Shown here piece after piece: positions 7,469 through 41,978 of a DNA stretch of 45,117 nucleotides. Within the stretch, counting starts at the first letter, position 1. Every line of letters starts with the position of its first letter. The notes beneath the pieces are model-generated. The model was not told the origin of the DNA. It worked only from the letters and a program-made list of their open reading frames with translations, and did no database searches. The position numbers and the translations under genes were made by a program. Source of the stretch: Alphaproteobacteria bacterium (lineage in GTDB: Bacteria; Pseudomonadota; Alphaproteobacteria; UBA8366; JADFVY01). The stretch is taken from positions 1 through 45,117 of the forward strand of contig JBFGQV010000004.1 in the NCBI GenBank assembly GCA_041563955.1, given 5' to 3'.

Positions 7469-7611
7469 GCGCGGACTCCGACGGGGGCTCGTAGCACATC
7501 GCCCGGCCGGGCCGGGCGACGCCATCTTCGATGGGCTGCGATACTAGGGGCGTCGGCTCTTGGATTTCGTTAAGAGTCCGCCGGTTTTGTGCGATCCGGG
7601 ATCCGCCGGCG

Positions 7612-8247: not shown

Positions 8248-8635
8248 TTCGACCGTCTCCGCATCATCGGGAACATCGGGATTCCGGCAACCCGGAAGGG
8301 CTGGGCCAGGGTTTCAGCACGCGGGCCCGCACGGCTCGGCGGACCCCGTCTTAACCAATATTTTAGAGTGCGCATTATAGCCAGAATAAACGGCTTGAGG
8401 AGGGAGAACCTCACATGCAAACGCGGATGTCGCGCGACAGGCACGGCACGGATTCACGGCGCCGGGCGCGCTGCGGCGCGGTCATCGATGGTGGCCGCGA
8501 GACCGCCATCGGGCACCCGGAATCCGCATCCCGCTCGGTTGGAAGATGGGCCGGCGCGGACTGTCCCGATCCGATCGGATGTCGCCGGCGCGCTACCGTC
8601 GGCCTGCCCGATACGCTCAACACGGAACCAGCACG

Positions 8636-17631: not shown

Positions 17632-18066
17632 TCACTCCGCCGCCGCGGTTACCGCGCCCCGGCGGATCATGAGGAATTCGCGCAGCGTGAACCAGCCGAG
17701 CAGCAGCGCCCCGGCCGCCGCGACATAGATGCGTACCGGCTCGAAATAGGTCATCAGCAACTCGCCGCCGAAGATCAGCAGCAGAACCTTGTTGCAGACC
17801 GGGCAGGCAACGCCGAGGAAGGCAAGGAGGCCGCCAGCGCCGGCGCCCTTGACGGAGCAGAACGGGCGGCGGATCGCAACATAGATCCCGGCCGCCAGCG
17901 ACATCGCCGCCAGCATCGCGATCTCCCAGCCGCCGGCCGGCGTCATGCGCACGAAGACCGGATTGTCCCACAGCGCCGCGACGGTGCCCAGCAGCACGAA
18001 GCTCGCCGCCGCCGTCGCCGCGCCCGCCGCGATCCGTTTCGGGGTCACATGGTCCATTTCTGCCAT
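17632..18066 (-). CDS. Small integral membrane protein with Cys motifs (FC...CPVC), function unknown
   Basis: About four hydrophobic segments; GVACPVCNK; RBS GAGGA. Start is 18066 or 18057. Confidence 0.7.
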   Translation of the reverse strand: MAEMDHVTPKRIAAGAATAAASFVLLGTVAALWDNPVFVRMTPAGGWEIAMLAAMSLAAGIYVAIRRPFCSVKGAGAGGLLAFLGVACPVCNKVLLLIFGGELLMTYFEPVRIYVAAAGALLLGWFTLREFLMIRRGAVTAAAE

Positions 18067-18122
18067 TCCTCTTCCGGCCTTTACTTGGTGGACCGTTGGC
18101 GGGACGGCAACCGGTTGCCGTG

Positions 18123-19517
18123 CTAGCCGGCGCAGCACGACAGCTTGCTGACGTCCCGCGCAAACCCTTGGGCTGCCAGTTTCAGACCCTCGACCGTCGT
18201 CAGATACGGGAAGATCATGGTCGCAAGGTCCTGCACGGTGAGGCCCTGGCGAATCGCCAGCGCCGCAGTCTGGATGCTATCGCCGCCCTCCGGCGCCAGG
18301 ATATGCGCGCCGAGCAGCTGGTCGGTGTCGGCATCCGCGACCAGCTTGATGAGCCCCCTCGTATCGCGTGCCGCCAGCGCCCGCGGCAACTGGTCCAGCG
18401 GCAGCAGCGAGGTTTCGACGGCACGCCCCGCTGCACGGGCCGCCGCCTCGGTGAGACCGACGGAAGCGGCCTGTGGATCGGTGAAGACGACCTCGGGCAC
18501 GGCGCTGTCGTCATAGCTGAGCGCGTCGCCATCCAGCGCGTTCCGGGCGGCGATGCGCGCGCCATGCGCCGCCATGTAGACATACATGTCGCGACCGGTG
18601 ACATCGCCGGCCGCGTACACGCCGGAGCGTGTCGTCCGCATGTACGTATCGACACGGATGCCGCCGCCCGTCGTCGTCTCGATCCCCATCTCCGTAAGCC
18701 CGAGACCCTCGGAATTGGGTCGCCGGCCAACGGCCACGATCATCGCTTCCGCCCGCAGCGCGACCGCGTCAACTCCCTCTGCCTCGAGAACGATACCGGC
18801 GCCGTTCTGCGACACCGACCGATAGGTAAGACCGGGGCGGACGTCGATGCAATCCCCGGCGAAACCGTGGGCCAGCGCCGCCGAAATCTCCGGCTCCGCG
18901 TGCGGCAACATTCGGCTGCGGCAGGCCAGGGTGACCTTCGCACCGGCCCGGGCGAACATCTGCGCCAGCTCGCAGCCGATGAACCCCGCACCGACGATCA
19001 GCAGGCTGTCCGGCAGGCGGGTCAGCGCCAACGCCTCGGTGCTGTCCAGCCACGGCACGTTGTCAATGCCGGCGATGGCCGGCACGGCGGGGCGCGCACC
19101 GGTGGCGATGACGATGCGCGGCGCGGCAACCAGCCGGTCGTCGATGAGAACGCCGCCATCGACGAGGCGCGCTTTACCCTCGATATAGTCGACTGACTCG
19201 TAATGGGGCAGGAGATCGACGTACTTGGCCTCTCGCATCGCCGCTACGAGATCGTCCTTGGCCGCGACCGTCGCCGACCAGTCGTCGATCGCGGCACGTG
19301 CGCGGATACCGCCGAATCGCCCCGCCCGGTTTACCGCGTGGACGCCATCCATCGCGCGGATCAGCGTCTTCGACGGTACGCAGCCGACATTGACGCATGT
19401 GCCGCCGATCAGGCCGTGCCCCACCAGCGCCACCTTCGCACCCCTTTCCGCGGCGGCGATTGCGGCGGAAAATCCGGCCGAACCGGCCCCGATTACGGCG
19501 AGGTCGTATGAGCTCAT
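18123..19517 (-). CDS. merA: Mercuric reductase lacking the N-terminal NmerA domain
   Basis: GGTCVNVGCVPSK active site, FPYLTTVEGLKL and C-terminal SCCAG. ATG overlaps the merF stop. Confidence 0.96.
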   Translation of the reverse strand: MSSYDLAVIGAGSAGFSAAIAAAERGAKVALVGHGLIGGTCVNVGCVPSKTLIRAMDGVHAVNRAGRFGGIRARAAIDDWSATVAAKDDLVAAMREAKYVDLLPHYESVDYIEGKARLVDGGVLIDDRLVAAPRIVIATGARPAVPAIAGIDNVPWLDSTEALALTRLPDSLLIVGAGFIGCELAQMFARAGAKVTLACRSRMLPHAEPEISAALAHGFAGDCIDVRPGLTYRSVSQNGAGIVLEAEGVDAVALRAEAMIVAVGRRPNSEGLGLTEMGIETTTGGGIRVDTYMRTTRSGVYAAGDVTGRDMYVYMAAHGARIAARNALDGDALSYDDSAVPEVVFTDPQAASVGLTEAAARAAGRAVETSLLPLDQLPRALAARDTRGLIKLVADADTDQLLGAHILAPEGGDSIQTAALAIRQGLTVQDLATMIFPYLTTVEGLKLAAQGFARDVSKLSCCAG

Positions 19518-19765
19518 GGCTGGCCGTCCCCTGCCTCGGTCGGCATCGGTTGCGAAGCCCGGCGCCGCCGCAGGTAGATGCCGTATACGAGGATCATCAG
19601 AAAAAGAGTCAGCGCCGGAAACAGGATCAAATCCAGCCACCAGCCGACCAGCGCCGACAGGCCAAGCGCACCGAGCGAGACGACGAGCAGCGGGGTGAAG
19701 CAGCACACCCCGGCGAGTAGCGCGCCGACACCGCCGATACCGATGAGTTTGCCGTCCTTCGACAT
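19514..19765 (-). CDS. merF: Mercuric ion transporter MerF
   Basis: 83 aa, two TM segments, VCCFTPLLV...GLSAL...LD...PAL; RBS GGAG; lies between the mer promoter and merA. Confidence 0.88.
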   Translation of the reverse strand: MSKDGKLIGIGGVGALLAGVCCFTPLLVVSLGALGLSALVGWWLDLILFPALTLFLMILVYGIYLRRRRASQPMPTEAGDGQP

Positions 19766-19796
19766 CCGTCTTCTCCCCGCCTTCCGAGACTGTGCT

Positions 19797-19827
19797 ACGC
19801 TACATGCTGTAGCGACTACAGGTTCAA
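19797..19827 (-). promoter_or_regulatory. MerR-type promoter/operator
   Basis: Minus strand reads TTGAAC-19 bp-TAGCGT, with the dyad CTGTAG-N3-CTACAG (19807-19821) inside the spacer. Confidence 0.92.
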
Positions 19828-19838
19828 GGAAAATCGGT

Positions 19839-20243
19839 ATGACCGAACTTTCGATCGGCACGCTGGCCTCCCGCACCGGCGTCAATATCGAGACGATCCG
19901 CTATTACGAGCGTATCGGCGTGATCCCCCCACCGCCGCGCACGGCCGGAGGCCAGCGACGGTATGATGAGGCCCATCTCCGCCGCCTGTCCTTCGTCCGC
20001 CGCTGCCGCGAACTCGGTTTTCCGCTCGACGAGGTCCGGGCTCTGCTCGCCCTGGTCGACGGCGGCGACTACAGCTGCGCCGAAATCCGCGAGACGACGG
20101 TGCGGCAGCTGGAGGCCGTGCGCCGCCGGATCGCCGACCTGCGCGTCATGGAGCGCACCCTCGATGCCATGGCAGCGGCGTGCGCGGGCGGGGCGGTGCC
20201 CGACTGCCCGATCGTCGACGCGCTGTTCGCCGAGCGGCGTTAG
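19839..20243 (+). CDS. merR: Hg(II)-responsive MerR regulator
   Basis: ETIRYYERIG HTH; three Cys (YSCAE, ACAGGAVPDCP); divergent from merF-merA. Confidence 0.9.
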   Translation: MTELSIGTLASRTGVNIETIRYYERIGVIPPPPRTAGGQRRYDEAHLRRLSFVRRCRELGFPLDEVRALLALVDGGDYSCAEIRETTVRQLEAVRRRIADLRVMERTLDAMAAACAGGAVPDCPIVDALFAERR

Positions 20244-20299
20244 GCGGCGCGCGATGGCCGTTGGAGCAATCCCCGCCGCCGGCGATCGGAGCGGGAATT

Positions 20300-20315
20300 C
20301 CGCAGAATTCTGCGG
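20300..20315. promoter_or_regulatory. Perfect 16-bp palindrome; candidate upstream activator site, or merR terminator
   Basis: CCGCAGAATTCTGCGG, about 230-245 bp upstream of the sigma54 promoter and followed by CTTTC. Confidence 0.45.
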
Positions 20316-20491
20316 CTTTCAGGTTGAACCGGCAGGTGCATAAAGGAAAGATACACCCCCCGAATCCGCATCAACCCGTTGAAAATATTAGACTTCACTC
20401 ATGTAGATCGAATGCGGTGTACATAATTTTTGTACTTCAGCAGCGATTCCGCGGCCTTCCGACGACCATCAGATTCGCGCACTCTATGATT

Positions 20492-20504
20492 TAACCAGTT
20501 GAAA
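20492..20504 (-). promoter_or_regulatory. Possible IHF site
   Basis: TTTCAACTGGTTA versus WATCAANNNNTTR (one mismatch), next to an A/T tract, about 45 bp upstream of the -24 element. Confidence 0.45.
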
Positions 20505-20545
20505 AACAAACATTTTATCGAGAACATCTCGATCTCTCCGGGCGC

Positions 20546-20561
20546 TGGCATGGAAGTTGCG
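20546..20561 (+). promoter_or_regulatory. sigma54 (-24/-12) promoter
   Basis: TGGCATGGAAGTTGCG has exact GG-N10-GC spacing and lies 40 bp upstream of the first gene; a GAFTGA activator is encoded in the same block. Confidence 0.85.
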
Positions 20562-20601
20562 CATGCTGTTGCGAGAGCGCATACGCGAGCGAGGTGGCGA
20601 G

Positions 20602-21009
20602 ATGAACGACAAAGCCAACATCCTCATCGTCGATGACGAAGAAGTGGTGCGCCTCAGCCAACTCAGAATACTGGCAGAGGCCCACTGCAATGCGGCGGTG
20701 GCCTGGAATGGGACCGAGGCCCTGCAGGTGATGGAGCAGCACCCGTTCGATGTCGTACTGCTCGACCTGCGCATGCCCGGCCCCGACGGCATGTCGGTTC
20801 TCAAGACGATCAAGGAGAGGTGGCCCGAGAGCGAGGTGGTCATCATCACCGGTTACCCGTCGATCGAGAGCGCCAAGGAGGCGGTCAGGCTCGGCGCCTA
20901 CAACTATCTGGCCAAGCCCGTCAGCCCGGACGATGTCGTCAAGGTCGCGAACGGCGCAGTGATGAAGAAACGGTGGGGTCTCCAAAGGGACCAATCGAAT
21001 CCGATGTGA
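20602..21009 (+). CDS. Receiver-only response regulator
   Basis: ILIVDDE, LLDLRMPG, ITGY, AKP; no output domain; RBS GAGGT. Confidence 0.92.
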   Translation: MNDKANILIVDDEEVVRLSQLRILAEAHCNAAVAWNGTEALQVMEQHPFDVVLLDLRMPGPDGMSVLKTIKERWPESEVVIITGYPSIESAKEAVRLGAYNYLAKPVSPDDVVKVANGAVMKKRWGLQRDQSNPM

Positions 21010-21078
21010 CGGAGTCGGTTGCCCGGCGGATCGCGTCAAACGACGAACCGCTCCACCCATCGAGGAAGGAGACTGGTC

Positions 21079-21852
21079 ATGAAAGCCTTACACAAAGTTC
21101 TCGTAGTTGACGACGACGCGGTCGTCGGTCGGAGTTTCGACAGGGTCCTCGCGGACAAGGGCTATGACGTAAGTACCGCCCTCGATGGCGAGGAGGCCCT
21201 GAACAAATGCGACGACGAGGCCTACGACGTCGTCTTCACCGACATCAAGATGCCGGGGATGGACGGCCTCGAAGTCGCTCGACGGATCAAGGCCAAGTGC
21301 CCGTGGACTCCGGTGGTCATCATCACCGGTTACGGCAGCGAGGAAAACGAGGCCGAGGCCCGCGTGCTCGGGGTCAACGGTTTCGTCCGCAAGCCCCTGA
21401 CGCCGGAGATGATCGAAGGGATCGCGTTGAAGGCCCTCGAGGAAAAGGGGGAAGCGCCGGCGCCGGCGCCTGAGGCGGCGGCAGTGGCCGTCCCGCAGGT
21501 CGCGGCGGACGTTGCCGAGACCGTCGAGACGATCGCACGGCCAGGCAGGTTGCGTGACGTCCTTGCCTTCACCGGCAAGGTTGGGCTGTTCTTCGCGGCA
21601 CCCTTCATCGGGCTGGCCTACGCCCTGTTCCTGCCCTTCTACGGGCTGGCGCTGCTGGCTTGGATGGGCGCGCGGGCGCTGTACCGGGTTGCGGGCATCA
21701 AACGGATTGCCGGCTTCCTTAGAAACGTCGCCCTGTTCATTGCGGCGCCGTTCATCGGGCTGGGCTATGCCCTCCTGCTGCCCTTCGTCGGCCTCGGCGT
21801 CGTGGCCTGGATGGGAATCCGCATGCTGATGAAGCAGCCCGAGCCCAAGTGA
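21079..21852 (+). CDS. Response regulator with duplicated C-terminal membrane anchor
   Basis: REC domain (VVDDD, TDIKMPG, KP), Pro/Ala linker, and two copies of LFxAAPFIGLxYALxLPFxGLxxxAWMG; RBS GGAG. Confidence 0.88.
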   Translation: MKALHKVLVVDDDAVVGRSFDRVLADKGYDVSTALDGEEALNKCDDEAYDVVFTDIKMPGMDGLEVARRIKAKCPWTPVVIITGYGSEENEAEARVLGVNGFVRKPLTPEMIEGIALKALEEKGEAPAPAPEAAAVAVPQVAADVAETVETIARPGRLRDVLAFTGKVGLFFAAPFIGLAYALFLPFYGLALLAWMGARALYRVAGIKRIAGFLRNVALFIAAPFIGLGYALLLPFVGLGVVAWMGIRMLMKQPEPK

Positions 21853-21961
21853 TCCGATGCTCTCATACGACGGCTGGCCGCCGCCCCGCGGATGGTGGCG
21901 GCCACCGCCCGAGGGACGCAACACCCCGATAAATCGGGGATCCCAAAGAGGAGCAAGACCC

Positions 21962-23668
21962 ATGGGAAGCTCCGGAATCGAGAACAAGATCGCAGTCAGC
22001 ACCCGGCACCTGAACGTCATCGCGGTGGCCGCAGTTGCCGTCCTGGTCATTGCCCTGGCCGGCCCGCCGGCCGCGTTCGCCAACACGCTTGGCGAGGACG
22101 ACCAGGCCTGCCTCGCCTGCCACGAATCCGAGGGAATGGAGAAGGACCTCGCCAATGGCGAAACCCTCTCGCTCAACGTGCAAGGCGAGAGTTACGCCGG
22201 CTCGGTGCACGACTGGGTCGGATGCGCAGGCTGTCACGCGGCGGTCGACCTCGACAGCCATCCGGGCGACAAAACGATCGCGAGCCGGCGCGACTATGCC
22301 GCCACGGCATCGGCGATCTGCGCCGACTGCCATGCGCCCGAGGATTTGGTCGAAGGCCCGGCGCACCACGCCCGTGTCGCGACGGCCGACGGTCCTCCCT
22401 GCGCCATGTGCCACAATCCCCATGCCGTCATTCCGATGGCAGAGTGGAAGGCAGCCACCGGGGAAACGGCGTACTGCGTGACCTGTCACGAGCAGGCCCT
22501 GGGCGTTCAATTGACGAGCGGCGAGTTCCTGTCCTTGTCCGTTGACCACGCCGTGCTGCGCGATTCGGTCCATCCGGACCACGACTGCACCGACTGCCAT
22601 GACGGCTTTTCCAAGGATTCCCACGAGACGGGCTCCTATGCAAGCATGCGCGAGCACGTGATTGCGCGGGTCCAGATCTGCCGAAAGTGCCATGAGGACA
22701 AGTTCCAACAGTATGAGGGCAGCATCCATGCCTCGCTGCTCGACAGCGGCAACCTCGCGGCCCCGGTCTGCTCCGATTGCCACGGGTCCCATTCGGTGCG
22801 GCCCAAGGCGGTGTTCGAGACGGTCGCCGGCGTACCCTGCAAGAAATGCCACGGCAACATCTTCGATGCCTATGTCGGCAGCACGCACGGCAAGGCGCGC
22901 GGCATCCTGGGCCACTTCGAGGCGCCCATCTGCGCGGACTGCCATCGGGCGCACGAGGTCGGCGCGGCCGCCGCGAGCAATCAGCTGCGCGAGGCGTGCG
23001 TCGGGTGCCATGCCGGAACGGCGTCGGCTCACCAGGCCTGGCTGCCGAATGCCGCGCTGCACCTCGATGCGGTGTCCTGCCCCGCCTGCCATGCACCGCG
23101 CGCGCTGCGTCGCGTCGAGCTCAGGCTCGTCGACGGCGCTGCCCAGACGCTGATATCGGACTCGGTCGATACGCTGCAGTTCGACGCCCGCGTCCGCGCC
23201 GCCGATGCCGACGGAAACGGCCTGGATGCGAACGAGCTGTGGAATCTGGTCAGAGACATCAACCGCACGGGACAGACCGTGGAGATGACGCTGCAGGGCC
23301 GGATCGGCGTTCGCACCGGTGCCGACGCCCACCAGCTGTCCGACAAGAGCCGCGCGGTCAGGGACTGCGCCAGCTGTCACCGCCAGGGCTCCGACGCGTT
23401 CGAGAACGTCACGGTGTCCGTCGTCGGTCCAGACGGCATGCCGGTGCACTACACCGCCGACAAGGACGTCCTGAATTCCATGACGTCGGTGGACTCGGTC
23501 GGCGGCTTCTATGCCATCGGCGGCACCCGCATCAAGGTCCTCGATGTGCTGCTCGCCTTCGTGTTTCTGGGCGGGATCTCCGTGCCGGTCGGGCACCTGA
23601 CATTGAAGTGGCTGTTCAGGAAATTCTTCAAGAGAACACCGCAGGAGGGCACGACCCCGCAACCCTGA
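21962..23668 (+). CDS. Membrane-anchored multiheme cytochrome c (13 CxxCH)
   Basis: Signal peptide; CLACH, CAGCH, CADCH, CAMCH, CVTCH, CTDCH, CRKCH, CSDCH, CKKCH, CADCH, CVGCH, CPACH, CASCH; C-terminal TM helix followed by His (PVGH). Confidence 0.93.
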   Translation: MGSSGIENKIAVSTRHLNVIAVAAVAVLVIALAGPPAAFANTLGEDDQACLACHESEGMEKDLANGETLSLNVQGESYAGSVHDWVGCAGCHAAVDLDSHPGDKTIASRRDYAATASAICADCHAPEDLVEGPAHHARVATADGPPCAMCHNPHAVIPMAEWKAATGETAYCVTCHEQALGVQLTSGEFLSLSVDHAVLRDSVHPDHDCTDCHDGFSKDSHETGSYASMREHVIARVQICRKCHEDKFQQYEGSIHASLLDSGNLAAPVCSDCHGSHSVRPKAVFETVAGVPCKKCHGNIFDAYVGSTHGKARGILGHFEAPICADCHRAHEVGAAAASNQLREACVGCHAGTASAHQAWLPNAALHLDAVSCPACHAPRALRRVELRLVDGAAQTLISDSVDTLQFDARVRAADADGNGLDANELWNLVRDINRTGQTVEMTLQGRIGVRTGADAHQLSDKSRAVRDCASCHRQGSDAFENVTVSVVGPDGMPVHYTADKDVLNSMTSVDSVGGFYAIGGTRIKVLDVLLAFVFLGGISVPVGHLTLKWLFRKFFKRTPQEGTTPQP

Positions 23669-23742
23669 TGCCCGCGGCGGCGGGCTGCGCCCCGGCAAGG
23701 CCCGCCACGCCGGCCGTGTTCTCCAGCGGAAGGAGAAGAAAG

Positions 23743-24381
23743 ATGCGCAAGATCTATATCCACCCGCTTCCGATCAGAATCTGGCACTGGACCAATGCCA
23801 CGGGTTTCGTTCTGCTGATCCTCACCGGACTGCAGATCAGATACGGCGATCTGATCGACGTGCTGCCCTTCAAGCTTGCCGTCAACCTGCACAACTGGGT
23901 CGGGTTCGTGCTGATCGGCAACTTCTTCATCTGGCTGCTGTTCTACCTGTTCACCGACAAGATCAAGGTGTATCACCCGGAACTCAGCCCGACGAAGTAC
24001 TTCCGCGAAAGCTTCCGGCAGCTCCAGTATTACGGCTATGGGATCTTCAAGGGCGACCCCAATCCGCACCACGCGACCGCCTATCACAAATTCAACCCGA
24101 TGCAGAGCATGTCGTACCAGATCGTCATGATGCTGTTGGTGCCGATCCAGTTCTACACCGGGCTGCTGCTGTGGGACGTGAAGCGTTTCGCGGGCGCGGT
24201 CGCATTCTTCGGCGGCGTGCGCGTGGTGGACACGGTGCATGTGCTGATCTTCATCATCTTCGTGGGCTTCCTGTTCGTCCACGTCTACCTTGCGACGCTG
24301 GGCCGTACGCGTACGGCGCATTTCAAGGCGATGTTGACCGGCTATGAGGAGGTCGAGGACGAGGCGGCGGAACATTCGTAG
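23743..24381 (+). CDS. Di-heme cytochrome b (HydC/FdnI/PhsC-type quinone-reactive subunit)
   Basis: RIWHWTNA, NLHNWVG, KFNPMQ, TVHV, FVHVYL; four TM segments; RBS AGGAG. Confidence 0.9.
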   Translation: MRKIYIHPLPIRIWHWTNATGFVLLILTGLQIRYGDLIDVLPFKLAVNLHNWVGFVLIGNFFIWLLFYLFTDKIKVYHPELSPTKYFRESFRQLQYYGYGIFKGDPNPHHATAYHKFNPMQSMSYQIVMMLLVPIQFYTGLLLWDVKRFAGAVAFFGGVRVVDTVHVLIFIIFVGFLFVHVYLATLGRTRTAHFKAMLTGYEEVEDEAAEHS

Positions 24382-24407
24382 CCGACCGGCTGTCGCAACT
24401 GCCTCTT

Positions 24408-24438
24408 ATCGCCGGGCCGCCATCCGTGGCCCGGCGAT
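24408..24438. terminator. Stem-loop terminator between convergent operons
   Basis: ATCGCCGGGCC-N9-GGCCCGGCGAT (11-bp arms) followed by TTCGACGTTTT. Confidence 0.7.
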
Positions 24439-24453
24439 TTCGACGTTTTCGCG

Positions 24454-25878
24454 TCAGCCTGCTTCGGAGGCGTCGTGGCTTATATCCGAACCGCGGATCC
24501 GGATGTTGTATTTCTTCATCAGTGCCTGAAAATTGGCCCGCTGCATGCCGGTGTCCTCGGCGCTCTTGGTCACGTTCCAGGCGTTCCGCTTAAGCGCCTC
24601 GATAACGAAGAGCTTCTCGATGTTCTCGACCGACTTCTCCCGCGCGACCTTCTTGACGCGCTTGAGCTCGTCTCCGGTCCTCGGCACCTCGACGTCGAGC
24701 CGCGGCAGCATGTCGAGAATGCTCACGAGATGCGCCTGGCGGATGGTGCTCTCGGTGGCGAGGATCACCGCGCGCTGAATCGTGTTCTCGAGTTCGCGGA
24801 CGTTGCCGGGCCAGTCGTAATTCATCAGCAGGTTCATCGCCTCGGCCGAAATATCGGTCATCTGCTTGTCGAGGTCGGCCGCGAAGACGTTGAGGAAGTG
24901 GAAGGCCAGGGCAGGTATGTCATCCTTGCGCTCCCGCAGCGGCGGGATCTGGATCGGAAAGATGTTGATGCGGTAGAACAGGTCCTCGCGGAAGGTGCCG
25001 TCCGCGATCATCGCCTTGAGATCCTTGTTGGTCGCCGTTATCAGCCGCAAGTTGGCGGCCTGTGTGCGGGTGCCGCCCACCGCCTTGAATTCCCGTTCCT
25101 GGATGACGCGCAGAAGCTTGGCCTGGGTCGACAGCGAGATGTTCCCGATCTCGTCGAGGAACAGCGTCCCGTTGTCGGCCACCTCGAACAATCCCTTCTT
25201 ATGGGCCACGGCCCCGGTGAACGCGCCCTTGACGTGGCCGAACATCTCGCTCTCCAGCAGGGTCTCGCTCAGCGAGTTGCAATCGACGGGAACGAACGGC
25301 TGGTCCTTGCGCAGGCTGTTGTAGTGGATGGCGCGGGCGATCAATTCCTTGCCGGTACCGCTTTCACCCTGCAGCAGGACGGTGCTGTTCGTTGGCGCGC
25401 ACTTGGCGATCAGGCGAAATACGTTCTGCATCTGGGGGCTGGAGCCGATGATGTTCTCGAAACGGTATTTCGAACTGACCTCCGTCTTCAGGTTTAGGTT
25501 CTCCTGGAGCAGCTTTCGACGCTCCAGCGCCCGCGCGACGACGAGTTCCAGCTCGTCGGGATCGAAGGGCTTCGGCAGGTAGTCAAACGCGCCGAGCTTC
25601 ATGGAGCGTACCGCGGTCTCGATCTGGGAATGCCCGGTCACCATGATGACGTCGATGTCCGGGTGCGTCTCCTTGACCCGCTGAAGCACCTCCATACCGT
25701 CGATCTTGGGCATCATGATATCGAGGATGATCAGATCGTACTGGCTCTCCTCGATCTTGTTCAGGGCCTCCCAGCCGTCCTGCACGGCGTCGAGCTCGTA
25801 GTCGCCGTTGCCGAGGATGCGCAGGCAGCTCTGGATGACGATCTCCTCGTCGTCCACGATCAGGATCCGGGTGCTCAC
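24454..25878 (-). CDS. sigma54-dependent NtrC-family response regulator
   Basis: REC domain, GESGTGKE, GAFTGA, LFLDEI, WPGNVREL, Fis-type HTH. GTG start overlaps the kinase stop. Confidence 0.96.
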   Translation of the reverse strand: MSTRILIVDDEEIVIQSCLRILGNGDYELDAVQDGWEALNKIEESQYDLIILDIMMPKIDGMEVLQRVKETHPDIDVIMVTGHSQIETAVRSMKLGAFDYLPKPFDPDELELVVARALERRKLLQENLNLKTEVSSKYRFENIIGSSPQMQNVFRLIAKCAPTNSTVLLQGESGTGKELIARAIHYNSLRKDQPFVPVDCNSLSETLLESEMFGHVKGAFTGAVAHKKGLFEVADNGTLFLDEIGNISLSTQAKLLRVIQEREFKAVGGTRTQAANLRLITATNKDLKAMIADGTFREDLFYRINIFPIQIPPLRERKDDIPALAFHFLNVFAADLDKQMTDISAEAMNLLMNYDWPGNVRELENTIQRAVILATESTIRQAHLVSILDMLPRLDVEVPRTGDELKRVKKVAREKSVENIEKLFVIEALKRNAWNVTKSAEDTGMQRANFQALMKKYNIRIRGSDISHDASEAG

Positions 25879-27530
25879 GGATTGCCCTTGCTGTCGGTTG
25901 TCTTGCCCGCGTCGTCGCCGGCCTCGGCCTCGCCGGCGGGCGGGTTCAGCGGCAGGCAGATGCGGAAGGTCGATCCCTTGCCCACGGTACTTTCGACCTC
26001 GATGCAGCCGCCGTGCGCGCGGACGATGCCGTGGCTCACGGACAGCCCCAGTCCGGTGCCCTTGCCGACCTCCTTCGAGGAGAAGAACGGATCGAAGATC
26101 CGCTGCAGGTCATCCTCCGGAATGCCGCAGCCGGTATCGATGATCGAGATCTCCACCATGGGCACGGGGTCCATGCCGACATCGGGAATCCTCGGCTCCG
26201 GTGACATGCGGGCGCGGATGGTGATGCTGCCGTCATCCTCGATGGCGTGCTGGGCATTGACGAGCATGTTCATGATGACCTGCTCTATGAGGTCGGGCTC
26301 GACCCAGATCTGCGGCAGGTCACGATCGAGCTCGAGCTTGATCTCGATATCGTGCAAATGCGCCGGCCGCTCGACGATGTGCACCGTATTCTCGATGATC
26401 TTGTTGATGTCGGCGAATTTCTTCTCCGGCGCCTTGTCGCGGGAGAAGTCGAGCAACCTGCGGATGATCGTGGCGCAGCGCTTGGTCTCGCGGATCACCA
26501 GGTCGAGGTCCTCGGCCTCCGGACTGCCATCGGGCACCTTCTTGCGCATCAGGTGCGAGAAGGTCAGGATCCCGGTGAGCGGATTGTTCAGCTCGTGCGC
26601 GATCCCGGCGGCGAGGAGCCCGATCGATGCGAGCTTTTCGCCGCGGGCCGCTTCGGCTTCGGCGTCGCGCAGCTCCCGGGTCCGCTTCTCGACCTTCTGC
26701 TCCAGCGTGTGTCCCCATTCGCGCAGCTCCGCCTCGGATTTCTTGAGCGCCAGCGTCATGTCGTTGAAACTGGTCGCCAGCTGGCCGAACTCGTCGCCGC
26801 TGCGCACCGGAATCAACTGCTCCAGATTTCCCGACGACAACCGCTTCGCGCCGCTTTCAAGGTCGCGGAGCGGCACGTAGACGAGACGATGCACCAGGAT
26901 GCTGAGCATCAGGGAGGCGACCACGATGAATGCCAGCGAGATGCCGCCCACGGTCATCGAGTTGGTCTGGATCGTCTGGTCGATATCGTCCAGGGAATAG
27001 AGGATGTCGAGCACGCCGAGGACCGTCTGATCCTTGGTATGCTGGTGGCACGCGGCCGTGTAGCAGGACGGCTCGTTGCGGATCATGCCCATGCTGCCGA
27101 GCAGGCGCCGCCCATCCGCCGTCTCGAAGATCCGCGGCCGCTTGCACGCCGGGATCTGTTCGAGGGTCTCGCGCGTCCGGTGACACTGCCCGCATTCCTC
27201 GGCCTTCTCCTGCACCGTGGTGCCGATCTCTTCCGGAAACGTCGAGTGGATGATCGTCCCGTCCTTGCTGAGGATCCGGACCTTCTCGATATTCTGCTGG
27301 TTGCCGACGTCCTGGATGATCTGGCCGACATAGGCGGGTTGGTTCTGAAGCATCGCGAATCGCGTGCTTCGCGTGATCACCTCGGACAGCTGATTGACGT
27401 GGCCCGTCGCCTCCTGCAGAAGTTCCTGCCGGTTGTGCCGCACCACCAGGACGGTGAACAGCAGCATCGCCAGCACCAGAGTGATGGCGAGAAAGACACC
27501 GATCTTCAGCTTGAGGGATACCGTGCGCAT
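25875..27530 (-). CDS. Sensor histidine kinase with heme-c-like motifs in the periplasmic domain
   Basis: TM-sensor (CGQCH, CYTAACH)-TM-HAMP-HisKA (AHELNNPL)-HATPase (DTGCG, GTGLGL). Confidence 0.93.
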   Translation of the reverse strand: MRTVSLKLKIGVFLAITLVLAMLLFTVLVVRHNRQELLQEATGHVNQLSEVITRSTRFAMLQNQPAYVGQIIQDVGNQQNIEKVRILSKDGTIIHSTFPEEIGTTVQEKAEECGQCHRTRETLEQIPACKRPRIFETADGRRLLGSMGMIRNEPSCYTAACHQHTKDQTVLGVLDILYSLDDIDQTIQTNSMTVGGISLAFIVVASLMLSILVHRLVYVPLRDLESGAKRLSSGNLEQLIPVRSGDEFGQLATSFNDMTLALKKSEAELREWGHTLEQKVEKRTRELRDAEAEAARGEKLASIGLLAAGIAHELNNPLTGILTFSHLMRKKVPDGSPEAEDLDLVIRETKRCATIIRRLLDFSRDKAPEKKFADINKIIENTVHIVERPAHLHDIEIKLELDRDLPQIWVEPDLIEQVIMNMLVNAQHAIEDDGSITIRARMSPEPRIPDVGMDPVPMVEISIIDTGCGIPEDDLQRIFDPFFSSKEVGKGTGLGLSVSHGIVRAHGGCIEVESTVGKGSTFRICLPLNPPAGEAEAGDDAGKTTDSKGNP

Positions 27531-27775
27531 TCCCCCATGCACCTCTCTTCAGGTTCCAGACTCGAGAGGGATTTGCCCTCAATTCAGGCACAACCAAAAG
27601 CTGGGCGATCCCTGGCAGCAAATCACCCAAGACTTCATGTAAAAATAAACTAGCAGCGAGCCGGTGGCGAAGAATTGATCCGAATCAATCCGTACACGGC
27701 CGGTCTCCGGCCGCCCTCTGCGGGCGGACCGCAATTTGCGGCTCTTGCAGCCGCCGCGGCAGGGGGACGGTGGCG

Positions 27776-27837: not shown

Positions 27838-29427
27838 ATGGGGAGTGACGATTTGCCGCTCCGATCGCGACGCCGCCGGCGCGAGCGGCTGGCGAAGACG
27901 GAGGAGGGGGCGCGGCCGGACTCGGGGCCGGCCGCTTCCGCTTCGGACACTCCGGTTCCCGCACCCTATGTCGGGCCGACGGCGGCCGCGCGCCGACCGC
28001 AATTCGCCTATCTCGACGACGGGCAACTGGATGCCCTCACCGAGCGCTGTTTCGCGCTGATCGAACGGCGCGGCGTCGATGTCGGGCACGCGGCGGCGGT
28101 GGAGCTGCTGGCTCGGGCCGGCTGCGGGGTGGACGGCGACGGACGGCGGGTGCGGATCCCGCGGGCTCTTGCCGAGGAGGCGCTGGCGGCGACACCGCGG
28201 AGCGCCACACTGTACAGCAAATCCGGACGCTTCGACCTCGACATCCCGCGCGCGGACAACACCTTCCACATGCGCACGGGGACCGGCGCGCACGGCTTCA
28301 TCGAGCCCGGCGGCCGTTACCGCAAGCTCGTGCTCGACGATGTGCGAATCATCGCGGCGATCGGGGACGGGCTGCCGGAGGTCGGATTCTTGGCCCACCC
28401 CTTCGTCAACGACGCGCCGGAACGCACCGCCGACATTCATGGGCTTGCCGCCCTGCTGGCGACGTCCGAGAAGCACAACTGGATACAGCCGTACGATACG
28501 CAGAATGTCGGCTTCCTGATGCGGTTGGCCGCGATCGCCGCAGGCGGTGAGAGCGCTTTGCGAAAACGCCCGATCGTCAGCTGCATCGCGTGCTCGTTCA
28601 CGCCGCTCGAATTCAAGGAGATGGATGTCGAGGCGATCATCCAATCGGGCCGTCACGGGATCCCGATCCACGCCTGCAGCCTGCCGACCGCGGGCGGCAC
28701 CGCGCCGGTCACCATGCCGGGCACGGTGCTGATGGCCGGCGCGGAGATTCTGGCGATGGTCGTGCTGACCCATGCCCTGGCCCGCGGCACGCCCCTGATC
28801 GCAACGCCGCTGATCTTCGCCCTCGACATGCGCACGGGGCGCAGCCTGCAGTCCAGCGTCGAGGCGCTGACCGGCGCCGCCATGGCGGTGCAGCTGTGCA
28901 AGCGGGGCTTCGGCCTGATGACCCACAGCTACGGCGCCGGGGCGGACACCCCGGACGTCTGCGGCCAATCGCAGGCGGAGCGGGCGCTGACCGGGCTGAT
29001 GGTCGGCCTGTCCGGGGCCGATATCCTCGGCGGGGTCGGCCAGCTCGAATGCGCGACCGTGTTCAGCCCGATCCAGGCGATCCTCGACAACGAGCTGGGC
29101 GCCATGCAGCGGGCCTGGCTGCACACGCCGCAGGTCGACGATGACTCGCTGGCGTGGGAGCTGATGCTCGAGGTCGAGCGCGGCGGTCATTTCCTGGCCA
29201 ACGCGCACACGCTCAAACACTGCCGCGAGGCCTTCGCGCCCAGTGCGTTCGTCAAGCTGGCGCGCGACCCGTACGAGGCGGCGGGCCGCCGGACGGCGCT
29301 GGACGCCGCGATGGCGATCTACGAGGCGCTGGTGTCGCGGCAGGCGCCGGCGGGTCTGCCGGATGCCGACGCCGTCGCGCAGATGGCCGACATCGTCGCC
29401 GCGGCCGACCGGGCGATCCTGGACTGA
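27838..29427 (+). CDS. Trimethylamine methyltransferase (MttB) superfamily, non-pyrrolysine
   Basis: Arg-rich N-terminus, GGTAPVTMPG, LDMRTG, GGHFLANAHT; no in-frame amber codon. Confidence 0.9.
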   Translation: MGSDDLPLRSRRRRRERLAKTEEGARPDSGPAASASDTPVPAPYVGPTAAARRPQFAYLDDGQLDALTERCFALIERRGVDVGHAAAVELLARAGCGVDGDGRRVRIPRALAEEALAATPRSATLYSKSGRFDLDIPRADNTFHMRTGTGAHGFIEPGGRYRKLVLDDVRIIAAIGDGLPEVGFLAHPFVNDAPERTADIHGLAALLATSEKHNWIQPYDTQNVGFLMRLAAIAAGGESALRKRPIVSCIACSFTPLEFKEMDVEAIIQSGRHGIPIHACSLPTAGGTAPVTMPGTVLMAGAEILAMVVLTHALARGTPLIATPLIFALDMRTGRSLQSSVEALTGAAMAVQLCKRGFGLMTHSYGAGADTPDVCGQSQAERALTGLMVGLSGADILGGVGQLECATVFSPIQAILDNELGAMQRAWLHTPQVDDDSLAWELMLEVERGGHFLANAHTLKHCREAFAPSAFVKLARDPYEAAGRRTALDAAMAIYEALVSRQAPAGLPDADAVAQMADIVAAADRAILD

Positions 29428-29441
29428 CCGGTGCGCGCGCC

Positions 29442-30089
29442 ATGACGGATTCGCTGGACGATCGCCTGGACGCCATCTTCGACGCGGTTCTGGATTACGA
29501 GGATGCGACCACGGCGGATCTCGTGCGCGCGGAGCTCACACGCGGCACTGATCTTCACGTGATCCTCAACGACGCCCTTATCGCCGCGATGGACGAGGTC
29601 GGCGACCTGTTCGGCCAGGGTGCGTTGTTCGTTCCGGAGATGCTGATGGCGGCGCGCGCCATGAAGGCGGGACTCGAGGTGCTGCGGCCACAGCTGACGG
29701 AAACCGAGGCGAAGCCGGCCGGCACGGTGGTGATCGGAACGGTGCACCGCGACCTGCACGACATCGGCAAGAACCTTGTCGGCATGATGCTCGAGGGGGC
29801 GGGCTTCACCGTTGTCGACCTCGGCGTGGACGTGCCGCCGGAGGGGTTTGCGGCGGCGCTCGACGCCCACCGTCCCGATATCATCGGCATGTCGGCCCTG
29901 CTGACCACGACCATGCCGAACATGGGCAAAACGGTGGAGCTGCTGCGCAAGACGGGCTGGAACGGCCGCATCATTGTCGGCGGCGCGCCGGTGACGCGCG
30001 ATTTCGCCGACGCCATCGGGGCCGACGGCTTCGCCGCCGACGCCCCCTCTGCGGTCGGTCTCGCACGGCAGATGACCGGCGCGACTTAG
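29442..30089 (+). CDS. Methyltransferase-cognate corrinoid protein
   Basis: MDEVGDLF...FVPEML cap domain; DLHDIGKNLV, SALLTTT and GGAP B12-binding motifs. Confidence 0.95.
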   Translation: MTDSLDDRLDAIFDAVLDYEDATTADLVRAELTRGTDLHVILNDALIAAMDEVGDLFGQGALFVPEMLMAARAMKAGLEVLRPQLTETEAKPAGTVVIGTVHRDLHDIGKNLVGMMLEGAGFTVVDLGVDVPPEGFAAALDAHRPDIIGMSALLTTTMPNMGKTVELLRKTGWNGRIIVGGAPVTRDFADAIGADGFAADAPSAVGLARQMTGAT

Positions 30090-30106
30090 CGGGGCAACTT
30101 AGGGGG

Positions 30107-32179
30107 TCAGCCGCCCCGCAGTTCCGCAATCTCCCGCCGGAACGGGGGTTCGTCGAGGGGGATCTCGGCGTCCAGCTCGCGGGCATAACGGTGGCCGGCA
30201 TACACCGCGGCCGCGAGCAGGCCCGGTGCGAACGCGTCGCCGATCGCGGTGACGCTCCGCAGGCCGGCGGCCGGCCAGTCGTCGCGGCGCGCTTTCAGGT
30301 CGAGATACAGCACCTCGTCCGGCAGGCGGGCCGTCACCAGCACGACCGCACCGCAGGTCGTCTGCTCGGTGCGCCCGGTGAAGATGCAGGCGGTCTCGAC
30401 ATGGTTCTCGGATATCCGGGCGACGGCGCGGTGCGGCACGATGCGCACGCCGCGCTCCAGCAGGCGCGTCTGAACGGCGGCCTGCTCCAGGGTGTTCTGG
30501 GCCCAGTTGGCGACCTCCGCGGCCGGCGTCACCAGCGTTACCGAGCAGCCGCAATCGACCAGCAGCTCGGCCAGCACGCTGCCCATGTAGAAGTGGTCGT
30601 CGTCGAACAGCACGACCGACCCGGCGGGCCGCAGGCCGTCCATCAAATCGTCGGGCGTCAGCACGGTGGCGCGGTCGGCGACGGGGATGGCGCGCTGGTG
30701 GAAGCGCGCAACGCCGTCGCGCCGCCAGTGCGCGCCGGTCGCCACCGCCACATGCTCGAAGCCGAAGTCGAGGACCTGGTCGGCGCTCAGCGCACTATCA
30801 TAGAACATCTCGACATTCGGCAGATCGTTGAGCTGCTGCAGCCGGTAGTCGCGCACGCGCGCCCAGGCGGCAAGGCCGGGCAGCTGCGATTCCCGCGTGA
30901 CCCGCCCACCGGGCTGCTGTCCCGCTTCCGCCACGGTGACGGCGTAACCGCGCTTTCCCAGCGCACGCGCCGCCTCGAGCCCGGCGGGGCCGGCGCCGAC
31001 CACCAGGACGCGACTGTCCGAGCCTTTCGCCGGGATGCGCTCGGGATGCCAGCCACGGCGCCATTCCTCGCCCATCGTCGGGTTCTGGGTGCAGCGGATC
31101 GGCGACATCGTCATGTCGCCAGTGATGCAGATGTTGCAGCCGATGCACTCGCGGATCTCGTCGACCCGCCCGTCCGCGATCTTGCGCGGCAGGAACGGGT
31201 CGGCGATCGACGGCCGCGCCGCGCCGATCAGGTCGAGCACGCCCTTGCGGACCATCGCCGCCATCGCGTCGGGCGAGGTGAAGCGGCCGACGCCGACCAC
31301 GGGCTTCGAGGTGATCGCCTTGACGTTGGCGACGAAGGGCTGCTGCGCGCCTTCCTCGGCGAAGCGCGAGGTCCGCGAATCGTTGTCCCAGCCGCTGAGC
31401 GTCAGGTCCCAGAGGTCGGGCAGCTCGGCCATCAGGGCGATCACGTCCTCGACTTCCTCGCGATGCAGGCCGGCATCGCCCAGCATCTCGTCCATGCTGA
31501 TGCGCACTGCGACCGCGCAGCTGTCGCCCACCGCATCCTTCGTGTCTTCGATCAGCTCGCGCAGCAGCCGGGCGCGGTTCTCGAGGCTGCCGCCATATTC
31601 GTCGCTGCGCCGGTTGAAGCGGCGCGACAGGAAGTGCTGCGGCGCGCCGAAGCCGTGCGCGGCGTAGACATAGACGATATCGAACCCGGCCTTCTTGCCA
31701 CGCAGCGCCGCGTTGCGGTGCCAGCGGCGCAGATTGCGGATGTCCTCCCCGTCCATGGCGCGGGCCTGCACCGGATCGTTGGTGAAGGTGATGATCGGCA
31801 TGTGCGACGGGCCCAGCGGGATCTCGCGGGTATAGAAGTTCGGCCCGTTCATGCCGTTATAGGCGAGCTCGATGCCGGCCAGCGCGCCGTGCTCGTGCAC
31901 CGCCTCGCACATCGCCACCAGCGGCGGCAGATCGCGGTCGTCCCACAGCCGGATCTCGATGAACGGCGTGATCTCGGAGCTGTGGTGGATTTCCGCCTGC
32001 TCGGTGCACACGACACCCCAGCCGCCTTCCGCCTTGATGCGCCGCAGCTCGACCATGCCCGACGGATCGCGGTAGCCCATGCCGTTGCAGTGCGGCACCT
32101 GATAGAAGCGGTTCGGCGCCGTCACCGGCCCGATCGGCACCGGCTCGAACAGGATGTCGTATCGCGGATCGCGGGCCAT
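30107..32179 (-). CDS. TMADH-family iron-sulfur flavoprotein, histamine-dehydrogenase-like
   Basis: NRFYQVPHC (6-S-cysteinyl-FMN Cys), YAAHG, CIGCNIC...C 4Fe-4S motif, GAGPAG; 690 aa. Confidence 0.88.
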   Translation of the reverse strand: MARDPRYDILFEPVPIGPVTAPNRFYQVPHCNGMGYRDPSGMVELRRIKAEGGWGVVCTEQAEIHHSSEITPFIEIRLWDDRDLPPLVAMCEAVHEHGALAGIELAYNGMNGPNFYTREIPLGPSHMPIITFTNDPVQARAMDGEDIRNLRRWHRNAALRGKKAGFDIVYVYAAHGFGAPQHFLSRRFNRRSDEYGGSLENRARLLRELIEDTKDAVGDSCAVAVRISMDEMLGDAGLHREEVEDVIALMAELPDLWDLTLSGWDNDSRTSRFAEEGAQQPFVANVKAITSKPVVGVGRFTSPDAMAAMVRKGVLDLIGAARPSIADPFLPRKIADGRVDEIRECIGCNICITGDMTMSPIRCTQNPTMGEEWRRGWHPERIPAKGSDSRVLVVGAGPAGLEAARALGKRGYAVTVAEAGQQPGGRVTRESQLPGLAAWARVRDYRLQQLNDLPNVEMFYDSALSADQVLDFGFEHVAVATGAHWRRDGVARFHQRAIPVADRATVLTPDDLMDGLRPAGSVVLFDDDHFYMGSVLAELLVDCGCSVTLVTPAAEVANWAQNTLEQAAVQTRLLERGVRIVPHRAVARISENHVETACIFTGRTEQTTCGAVVLVTARLPDEVLYLDLKARRDDWPAAGLRSVTAIGDAFAPGLLAAAVYAGHRYARELDAEIPLDEPPFRREIAELRGG

Positions 32180-41906: not shown

Positions 41907-41978
41907 TGCATTTGCCTCCCTTGTTAATGCCGGCGTTCGTCTCCCATTGCCTCTCTTTCGCGCCATTCCTCCTCGGCG

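Follow-up and report, generated by a model that had tools for sequence, protein, structure and literature searches.

The window analysed here, a stretch of 45,117 nucleotides (nt) of contig C4 (JBFGQV010000004.1) in a 2.45-Mb, 71% complete assembly (genome G000) of an uncultured marine-sediment alphaproteobacterium, contains at 20300-27741 a block of six genes that we assign with considerable confidence to the CbcBA type of modules, in which a multihaem cytochrome c is paired with a cytochrome b of the inner membrane. The block is very probably related to the CbcBA/BccR/GSU0599 system of Geobacter, i.e., it would be a recognisable respiratory wire and not one of a new kind. The explanation that we prefer, tentatively and with slightly less than even confidence, is an oxidoreductase of this type, provided with its own regulatory circuit and leaning to an inward flow of electrons, from the periplasm to the quinone pool. 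An earlier note, made from the letters of the DNA, had described the block as a sigma-54-controlled electron-transfer module without catalytic subunit. The elements that it listed (six genes, 13 CxxCH motifs in the cytochrome c, CxxCH and CxxxxCH motifs in a kinase, a GAFTGA activator and a -24/-12 promoter) are all present where it had placed them, and a molybdopterin, NiFe or Fe-S catalytic subunit was indeed found nowhere in the window.

Gene organization of the block

The listing of open reading frames (ORFs) and the Pfam matches place the six genes in two convergent units, four on the plus strand and two on the minus strand (Table 1). The plus-strand unit encodes a stand-alone receiver (REC1), a receiver fused to a membrane part (REC2-TM), the 13-haem cytochrome c and the cytochrome b, and the minus-strand unit a response regulator and a sensor histidine kinase. 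The response regulator has the three parts that define the NtrC family, a receiver (REC), an AAA+ domain with the GAFTGA motif and a Fis-type helix-turn-helix (HTH). In the translated kinase the two cysteine motifs, CGQCH and CYTAACH, are located between its two hydrophobic segments. A terminator scan of the 72-nt convergent gap (24382-24453) found none. The G+C content of the cassette is 62.6%, compared to 67.9% and 69.6% in the flanks.

The cytochrome c and cytochrome b subunits

The cytochrome c is the protein that could be compared at the sequence level with a probable Geobacter counterpart. Its signal peptide is followed by two 4-haem modules in tandem and by a C-terminal part with five haems and a beta-rich insert; P542 and H545, in the membrane helix at the C terminus, were invariant in 40/40 aligned homologues. 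Residues 50-167 and 172-290 are an internal duplication (32% identity, E 9e-15), so that the extra four haems of this protein are accounted for by the tandem copy of the module. Used as a single sequence, the protein matched PDB 28pb_A, a chain of 278 aa for which the printed alignment shows seven CxxCH, at E 4.9e-17, and a profile of 40 homologues matched the same entry at E 3.7e-28. The alignment extends over the haem block, the beta-rich insert and the last haem. A solved structure of CbcA appears in a 2026 review, its code printed as '2BPB', and 28pb_A is probably CbcA. The AF2 model of the whole cytochrome c (pLDDT 70.3) was less revealing. Foldseek gave nothing at E ≤ 0.001 in the PDB, and VIA-align returned weak matches to multihaem proteins in general (HAO-like Z 4.8, NrfB Z 4.5) together with single-helix matches, uninformative on the fold. 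Haem number varies among homologues, the 120 best in the database having 13 (49 proteins), 9 (67) or 8, 10 or 12 (4) haems.

The b subunit has four histidines (H15, H50, H166 and H180) that were invariant in 22/22 sequences, at what we take to be the positions expected for a dihaem b of the FdnI/HydC type. Its best NCBIfam match was the thiosulfate reductase cytochrome b PhsC (NF011582), with 136.8 bits, below the cut-off of 204. Against PDB sequences its profile gave no match at E ≤ 1, and the single sequence produced chance matches only. A search of 1.84 billion representatives was more informative and retrieved 833 matches at E ≤ 0.001. Within the best 150 of them, 83 were fusions of at least 400 aa with the b domain at the C terminus, and 66 of these 83 carried seven CxxCH motifs. 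One fusion with 13 haems (P0365, 777 aa) shows 38% identity along the full cytochrome c and 47% in its b domain; another (P0367) carries nine haems. In the three fusion junctions inspected, a membrane helix with P-x-x-H is retained ahead of the b domain. The adjacency of the genes here and the existence of natural single-protein fusions elsewhere indicate that the b and c subunits work as one complex.

Conservation and distribution of the cassette

We searched whole genomes in a set of 61 (G000 and 60 relatives, 13 of the same family and 47 from five other families of the order). The cytochrome c was found in 11 of them, including 10/13 of the other family genomes and 0/47 of those from the other families, with full-length matches at E ≤ 1e-186 in eight other genomes. 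The earlier note had proposed a search for neighbourhoods with all six genes, and these were present and syntenic in 6/6 stretches fetched from relatives (G001, G002, G004, G005, G007 and G012; three genera, one family); locus L001 begins inside the cassette and holds its last four genes. Within the family the regulators are better conserved (activator 77-93% identity, kinase 69-92%) than the cytochrome c (53-79%).

Outside the family, 2518 database proteins matched the b subunit at E ≤ 1e-10. The named ones were 72-78% identical and betaproteobacterial, and included records of Georgfuchsia toluolica, Rhodoferax sp., Sterolibacterium sp. and Burkholderiaceae. When 400 other genomes were sampled evenly across the phylum, a single one had a b-subunit match at E ≤ 1e-40 (36% identity). 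Since database matches are many and only 1/400 sampled genomes had one, the distribution is patchy. A pattern scan of the genome contigs gave one close locus and otherwise distant cytochromes of Campylobacterota and Aquificota, and a cluster look-up of 10 stand-alone b-subunit representatives found no named Geobacter member. In a family search of 14 control genomes the sole match was in E. coli. A search of sequencing runs listed 20 DNA runs from 10 studies (marine, sediment, soil, mangrove) and no RNA run.

A scan of metagenomes with the b-subunit alignment confirmed 531 relatives, from which we kept the best 80 and compared the 34 loci of at least 7 kb. The gene order and orientation of the window were found in 17, another 11 were consistent with it but cut by the contig end, and six were variants. 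Among the latter, the receivers of L094 and L096 lie downstream in inverted orientation, L098 and L117 carry an additional kinase-like gene upstream, the 4 kb downstream in L048 are devoid of regulators, and L120 is different. In L094 and L096 a diverged second kinase-like gene (34-37% identical) precedes a 9-haem cytochrome and b subunit, and in L096 a canonical activator and kinase are located some 8 kb upstream.

Most of the 34 long loci encode a 9-haem cytochrome c that aligns from residues 166/172 of the window protein onward. This form, represented in betaproteobacteria (Georgfuchsia, Rhodoferax, Sterolibacterium and Burkholderiales records), lacks the first 4-haem module and preserves the same six genes, order, orientation, promoter position and kinase motifs. 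Its b subunit is 69-78% identical to that of the window, its activator 66-84%, its kinase 51-75% and its cytochrome c 38-57%. We found no characterised example of this 9-haem betaproteobacterial form.

The promoter region

The window contains one exact match to the sigma-54 pattern TGGCAY-N5-TTGC, located upstream of REC1. With one mismatch allowed there were four matches in the window, compared to 5.3 expected by chance, and since the motif by itself is no commoner than chance, its weight comes from its conservation across loci. It is exact in 7/7 aligned family loci, 56-67 nt before the start of REC1 and amid otherwise poorly conserved DNA. Among the 33 loci in which 300 nt or more precede REC1, it is exact in 23, at -51 to -67 from the REC1 start, and the remaining 10 have a near-consensus GG-N10-GC at the same position, read by eye. 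The rpoN gene was found in four of five relatives searched, and was not found in G005. The sigma-54 control claimed by the earlier note thus stands at the level of the sequence, with a conserved -24/-12 element and a GAFTGA activator, and the operon is probably sigma-54-dependent.

Two imperfect inverted repeats upstream of the promoter (sites 1 and 2 in Table 1) may be the binding sites of the activator. The repeat of site 1 appears at -205 to -209 in 7/9 loci of the alphaproteobacterial type (the window, L030-L035, L042 and L051; it was missed in L035 and L051), embedded in intergenic DNA that is otherwise poorly conserved. At site 2 a column block GTGTACAT...GTAC is conserved in the seven-locus alignment and the regular expression matches at -127 in L034 and L035; the window copy deviates from it in its last bases. 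No repeats of this pattern were present in the betaproteobacterial loci, so that the proposed binding site is defined within the alphaproteobacterial family alone. Both repeats came from the alignment, and an inverted-repeat finder run on the promoter region returned only the palindrome at 20295-20320. This palindrome, of 16 nt (GAATTCCGCAGAATTC / GAATTCTGCGGCTTTC), lies downstream of merR and just upstream of site 1.

Two A/T-rich motifs resemble binding sites of the integration host factor (IHF). One of them, ATCAACCCGTTGA, is probably the IHF-like site meant in the earlier note. The other is located closer to the promoter, and its pattern TAA-N4-TTGAAA is kept in 5/7 family loci, with CAA for TAA in one locus and TGAAT for TTGAAA in another. 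Its reverse complement can be compared with the IHF consensus, which we take to be WATCAANNNNTTR. An IHF-like site is present, as the note had it; the motifs are partly conserved, and a role of IHF at them is suggested by this resemblance.

Receiver proteins and sensor kinase

All aligned copies of both receivers (REC1 n = 34; REC2-TM n = 31 and 19) retain an acidic pocket, the Asp that accepts the phosphoryl group, and the Thr and Lys residues, and REC1 is conserved across the 34 sequences with its LLD, ITG and KP blocks. In the alignment of 19 REC2-TM sequences D11-D13, D55, T83 and K105 were invariant, as were the hairpin residues AP..GL.Y....P. A hairpin with the motif AAPFIGLxYxxxxPFxGL occurs twice in the membrane part of REC2-TM; this part matches no Pfam or NCBIfam family, and in the ESM Atlas gave a best score of 0.81 to small unnamed proteins, no usable lead. 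The REC2-TM gene always directly precedes that of the cytochrome c. Probably REC1 and REC2-TM compete for the phosphoryl groups of the kinase as feedback or tuning. We regard as unlikely a more daring idea, that REC2-TM is a phosphorylation-controlled subunit or gate of the b-c complex with its receiver docked on the cytochrome b; if true, the kinase would control the wire twice, by sigma-54 transcription and directly in the membrane, and a respiratory complex would be switched post-translationally by a two-component system. A complex prediction in which the REC2-TM membrane part was the partner of the b subunit and of the last 74 residues of the cytochrome c scored 0.00, compared to a mark of 0.32, and speaks neither for nor against binding.

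The periplasmic segment of the kinase has 1745 database matches at E ≤ 0.001, and both cysteine motifs were found in 119 of the 120 best. Among the 34 locus copies CxxxxCH was kept in all and CxxCH in 31, with the four cysteines and H136 (alignment numbering) invariant. The other three have CxxCY at the first motif and keep CxxxxCH (L081 4622-5143, L099 5464-5985 and L092 3233-3754), a pattern that points to the second motif as the essential haem site, or else to some other role of the first cysteine pair. The AF2 model of the sensor domain (pLDDT 75.8) is a single PDC/sCache domain that matched WalK (Z 16.7, root mean square deviation 1.9, 137 aligned), CitA (Z 13.1) and the haem protein Tll0287 (Z 7.6). 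Foldseek also matched it to the haem-c sensor GSU0935 (3b42) at E 2.6e-4. By sequence, the sensor profile reached only E 0.15 with 3b42, insignificant alone, and the alignment placed NEQRCQSCH of 3b42 at NEPSCYTAACH of the window. Taking the model and the likeness to Geobacter haem-c sensors together, we regard the kinase as most likely a sensor of the redox state or of a haem ligand, with haem c bound covalently in its sCache/PAS-like periplasmic domain. The term heme-sensing, used in the earlier note, would then have to give way to a haem-containing redox or ligand sensor.

Electron partners and direction of flow

These parts can be assembled in a working model. The b-c complex would move electrons between the ubiquinone pool and a periplasmic cytochrome network that includes an MtrA/MtrB-type conduit, with the 13-haem cytochrome c tethered to the b subunit by its C-terminal helix and the invariant histidine in it. 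The sCache domain of the kinase, with one or two covalent c-haems, would report the periplasmic redox state, and the kinase would phosphorylate the NtrC-type activator, which would in turn bind the two upstream repeats, helped in opening the sigma-54 promoter by DNA bending at the IHF-like site. The soluble REC1 and the membrane-anchored REC2-TM probably draw phosphoryl from this same kinase.

The conduit is suggested by other contigs of the same organisms. Contig C125 of G000 (L122 1139-4499, minus strand) encodes a porin of the MtrB/PioB family (745 aa, 543 bits) and, ahead of it, an MtrA/PioA-like cytochrome with 10 haems (356 aa), and an MtrA/MtrB pair is also found in G001 and G004. To examine the flanks of 12 complete metagenome cassettes we annotated 57 of the 83 candidate flanking ORFs. 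Mtr-type genes adjoin the cassette in 3/12 loci, namely L047 (MtrA-like and MtrC/OmcA-like), L090 and L114 (both with MtrB and MtrA). The flank of L090 also contains two NapC/NirT genes (CymA-like) and a CbcL-like fusion. Other cytochrome modules adjoin the cassette in L089 and L108, and the remaining seven have unrelated neighbours.

Regarding the direction, the quinone of the host offers a clue. Among five family genomes menA was found in 0 and ubiA in 5, so that the host quinone would be ubiquinone, into which a low-potential multihaem chain would feed electrons more easily. For this reason, and granted a machine of the CbcBA type, we lean slightly to periplasmic cytochromes as donors and ubiquinone as acceptor, and hold the outward direction of Geobacter to be a little less probable. 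CbcBA has itself been proposed to run inward, after horizontal transfer, in Seep-SRB2. The self-regulating quinone-to-periplasm wire of the earlier note is thus borne out as a regulated and strongly syntenic b/multihaem c module, with a direction that leans the other way.

The same machine could work outward, passing electrons from ubiquinol through the b subunit, the 13-haem chain and MtrAB to extracellular Fe(III)/Mn(IV) or another high-potential acceptor, and being induced when the periplasmic cytochrome pool becomes reduced. This is a serious alternative, even if a rather doubtful one. Close relatives of the b subunit (72-75% identity) come from the records of Georgfuchsia toluolica, Rhodoferax sp. 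and Sterolibacterium sp.; Georgfuchsia and Rhodoferax are genera that include metal reducers. The MtrC/OmcA-like outer-membrane cytochrome beside the cassette of L047 and the CymA-like genes of L090 point the same way, as does Geobacter, where CbcBA runs outward and is induced through BccR as the potential falls (Joshi et al., 2021). Against it stand the quinone genes just mentioned and the lack of an MtrC-like gene, none being seen on the 6.5-kb contig C125 of G000 nor beside MtrA/MtrB in G004. MtrA and MtrB without MtrC are the arrangement typical of the MtoAB/PioAB Fe(II) oxidisers. The potential of ubiquinol is about +0.1 V. It would be a poor donor to a bis-His multihaem chain if the haem potentials in the window resemble those of CbcA, for which a table of the 2026 review gives an apparent midpoint of -279 mV.

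Two further possibilities concern what the wire is for. The b-c pair might be the membrane anchor and the electron entry or exit of a periplasmic enzyme whose genes lie elsewhere, such as one that reduces thiosulfate, polysulfide or tetrathionate or one that oxidises sulfur, as in the suggestion of a sulfur species as donor or acceptor made in the earlier note. It would fit that the b subunit matches PhsC and that sulfur genes occur in the window (two flavoproteins and a DsrE-like gene, Table 1), but that match is below the cut-off and the Geobacter paper reports this very mis-annotation of CbcB homologues; no PhsA/B-like partner was found, the 57 flanking ORFs included no molybdopterin or NiFe subunit, and what appeared instead were MtrA/MtrB-type genes. 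Besides, the sulfur genes are 15-20 kb distant, outside the conserved cassette and unlinked to it in other loci, and the 13-haem chain already occupies the place of the catalytic subunit's electron-transfer partner. We consider this role quite improbable. Very improbable, in our opinion, is a redox valve or shunt that conserves no energy and has no extracellular tie, releasing electrons to soluble acceptors of the periplasm if this compartment or the quinone pool is over-reduced. A dissipative role with low yield has been proposed for CbcBA in Geobacter, and nine of the 12 cassettes examined lack an Mtr-type neighbour; against this, Mtr-type genes co-occur with the cassette in G000, G001 and G004 and adjoin it in the three loci described, and thirteen haems are long for a local shunt.

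Several observations weigh against the preferred reading of a CbcBA-type oxidoreductase with inward flow. No Mtr gene adjoins 9/12 cassettes, and G002, which is 88% complete and has the cassette, gave no MtrB match, the one in G007 being weak; both facts would suit the shunt. The MtrC/OmcA-like gene of L047 is typical of metal reducers and favours outward flow in that locus. No rpoN was found in the 71% complete G000. At the first kinase motif there may be a metal or disulfide site instead of a haem, given the three CxxCY copies and the invariance of all four cysteines. The 28PB entry is titled merely 'Cytochrome c', and the code that the review prints for CbcA is not '28PB'. The regulators are convergent and downstream here and divergent and upstream in Geobacter, and all four canonical histidines are found in the b subunit, whereas the Geobacter paper puts three of them in CbcB and the fourth in CbcA. 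Finally, the comparison was made by sequence for the cytochrome c, and for CbcB, BccR and GSU0599, three of the four shared parts, by domain architecture and published descriptions.

Neighbouring genes

A mercury resistance-type (mer) set is found directly upstream of the promoter region (Table 1). The mer genes occupy the same place in G000, G001 and G002 and are absent from G004 and G012. By this distribution the set is an insertion that varies among genomes, placed between the cassette and the HPPD gene, and we have rejected the idea of the block as a mercury-linked unit because G004 and G012 keep the cassette without mer genes. On the other side, next to the kinase, there is a set with an MttB-family methyltransferase, a B12-binding protein and an old yellow enzyme (OYE)/flavin oxidoreductase. 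MttB and the B12-binding protein are kept in G004 and G007, OYE alone in G001 and G002, and all three in L001; the set suggests methylamine or betaine demethylation. Farther away, the window also encodes a long protein of Sel1 repeats.

Table 1. Positions of the features of the window, with strand and distinguishing traits
Feature	Position	Strand	Traits
Sigma-54-type -24/-12 element	20546-20560	+	TGGCATGGAAGTTGC; sole exact TGGCAY-N5-TTGC match in the window
Candidate activator-binding site 1	20337-20355	+	TGCATAAAGGAAAGATACA; imperfect inverted repeat TGYAY-N9-RTRCA; about 209 nt upstream of -24
Candidate activator-binding site 2	20418-20436	+	TGTACATAATTTTTGTACT; imperfect inverted repeat TGYAY-N9-RTRCA; about 127 nt upstream of -24
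IHF-like motif	20370-20382	+	ATCAACCCGTTGA; read from sequence; partly conserved as CAAC/TAAC-N-TTGAAAA (seven-locus alignment)
A/T-rich IHF-like motif	20492-20504	+	TAACCAGTTGAAA, reverse complement TTTCAACTGGTTA; between site 2 and promoter
REC1, stand-alone receiver, 135 aa	20602-21009	+	Pfam Response_reg E 5e-28; canonical DD / D / T / K
REC2-TM, receiver with two repeated membrane hairpins, 257 aa	21079-21852	+	Response_reg E 4e-28; hydrophobic windows
13-haem c-type cytochrome, 568 aa	21962-23668	+	13 CxxCH; signal-like N terminus ending AFA; C-terminal hydrophobic helix
Four-helix dihaem cytochrome b, PhsC/HydC/FdnI type, 212 aa	23743-24381	+	PF01292 E 1e-27
Sigma-54 enhancer-binding response regulator, BccR-like	24454-25878	-	REC PF00072 E 1e-32; Sigma54_activat PF00158 E 9e-70; PF25601; HTH_8 PF02954; GAFTGA
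Sensor histidine kinase, 551 aa from ATG 27530	25875-27530	-	Transmembrane segment (TM), periplasmic domain, TM, HAMP, HisKA, HATPase_c (Pfam)
168-aa membrane protein (mer set)	17632-18138	-	
merA-like reductase	18123-19706	-	
MerF-type transporter	19514-19885	-	
merR	19839-20243	+	
MttB-family methyltransferase, B12-binding protein, 690-aa OYE/flavin + Pyr_redox_2 oxidoreductase	27838-32179		Flanking the kinase; the oxidoreductase trimethylamine-dehydrogenase-like
Sulfide dehydrogenase flavoprotein, flavocytochrome c sulfide dehydrogenase (FCSD) type	4764-6035		
Second Pyr_redox_2 flavoprotein	40767-41966		Possibly sulfide:quinone oxidoreductase (SQR)-like
DsrE-like gene	42236-42634		
Sel1-repeat protein, 800 aa	8546-10948		18 Sel1 repeats; Pfam E 3.5e-196

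Comparison with known systems

The sensor part of the kinase has its nearest known counterparts in the chemoreceptor sensors GSU0582 and GSU0935 (PDB 3B47 and 3B42), with which it would share a single PDC/sCache fold between two TM helices and a c-haem motif. Here the output is a kinase, the motif that aligns is CxxxxCH, and there is a second motif, CxxCH, upstream. The b-c pair, for its part, can be compared with the CbcL/MtoC-type fusions, in which a periplasmic multihaem c is also joined to a dihaem b of the PF01292 family and which also have the role of a gate of the quinone pool. In the window the c and b parts are separate genes, and the fusions nearest to its b subunit are of the CbcA-CbcB type; the Geobacter paper states that CbcL has a different number of helices from CbcB and is not homologous to it in sequence (Joshi et al., 2021). 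A protein of the CbcL/MtoC kind does exist in the family. L039 (G004) encodes at 6666-10124 (minus strand) a 739-aa protein with nine CxxCH and a C-terminal PF01292 b, beside a 406-aa cytochrome c with four CxxCH, and weaker matches to the fusion were found in most family genomes, the incomplete G000 not among them.

The closest likeness is to the Cbc5 cluster of Geobacter (GSU0593-0594, with BccR, GSU0598, and GSU0599, the last adjoining bccR by gene number). In the published description, a sigma-54 promoter precedes an operon in which genes for two hypothetical proteins and one response regulator are followed by cbcA and cbcB (Joshi et al., 2021). CbcA has seven haems and a C-terminal helix that apparently gives a histidine to a b haem, and CbcB is a 4-helix dihaem protein whose homologues are routinely mis-annotated as 'thiosulfate reductase'-like. 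BccR, a REC-sigma54-HTH activator beside the operon, is required for its induction as the redox potential falls, and two further papers describe GSU0599 as a two-component protein whose PAS-like periplasmic domain contains two CX2-4CH motifs. The block of the window repeats this design. A sigma-54 operon opens with small regulatory or membrane proteins and continues with an anchored multihaem c and a 4-TM dihaem b; next to it are a REC-AAA+-HTH activator and, going by the published description, a kinase with the same two CX2-4CH motifs and PAS-like domain. Homology to the solved 7-haem cytochrome that is probably CbcA extends over the C-terminal half of the cytochrome c. The differences are the 13 haems in place of seven, by the duplicated 4-haem module and extra haems, and the leader genes, two canonical receivers here (one of them membrane-anchored) and two hypothetical proteins with one response regulator in Geobacter. 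The quinone partner would differ too, since Cbc5 oxidises menaquinol for respiration below about -0.21 V and the host here would be a ubiquinone-only alphaproteobacterium.

In the light of this comparison the earlier note overstated the novelty of the block, as it had cited CbcBA only as an analogue and the whole design matches Cbc5/BccR/GSU0599. Its remark that no characterised example exists in alphaproteobacteria does hold among the listed papers that mention CbcBA, none of which deals with alpha- or betaproteobacteria, judged by their titles. Along these lines, the passages of the Geobacter paper that deal with homologues name Anaeromyxobacter, Caldithrix, Bacteroidetes, Verrucomicrobia and Chloroflexi and no non-delta Proteobacteria (Joshi et al., 2021). 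Since the design has already been described in Geobacter, the gain is incremental and not conceptual. A cultured carrier could nevertheless provide a marker for mineral electron exchange outside the classical metal reducers, a direct test of the direction of the gate with ubiquinone, and a tractable haem-c redox sensor whose target promoter is defined.

In Geobacter and related organisms, CbcBA is the inducible gate of lowest potential that connects the quinone pool with extracellular electron transfer. Together with a haem-bearing sensor kinase and a sigma-54 switch, this gate would also exist as a mobile and very conserved six-gene cassette in ubiquinone-using Proteobacteria, and here in an enlarged 13-haem form, in an uncultured marine-sediment family of alphaproteobacteria that has an MtrAB-type conduit.

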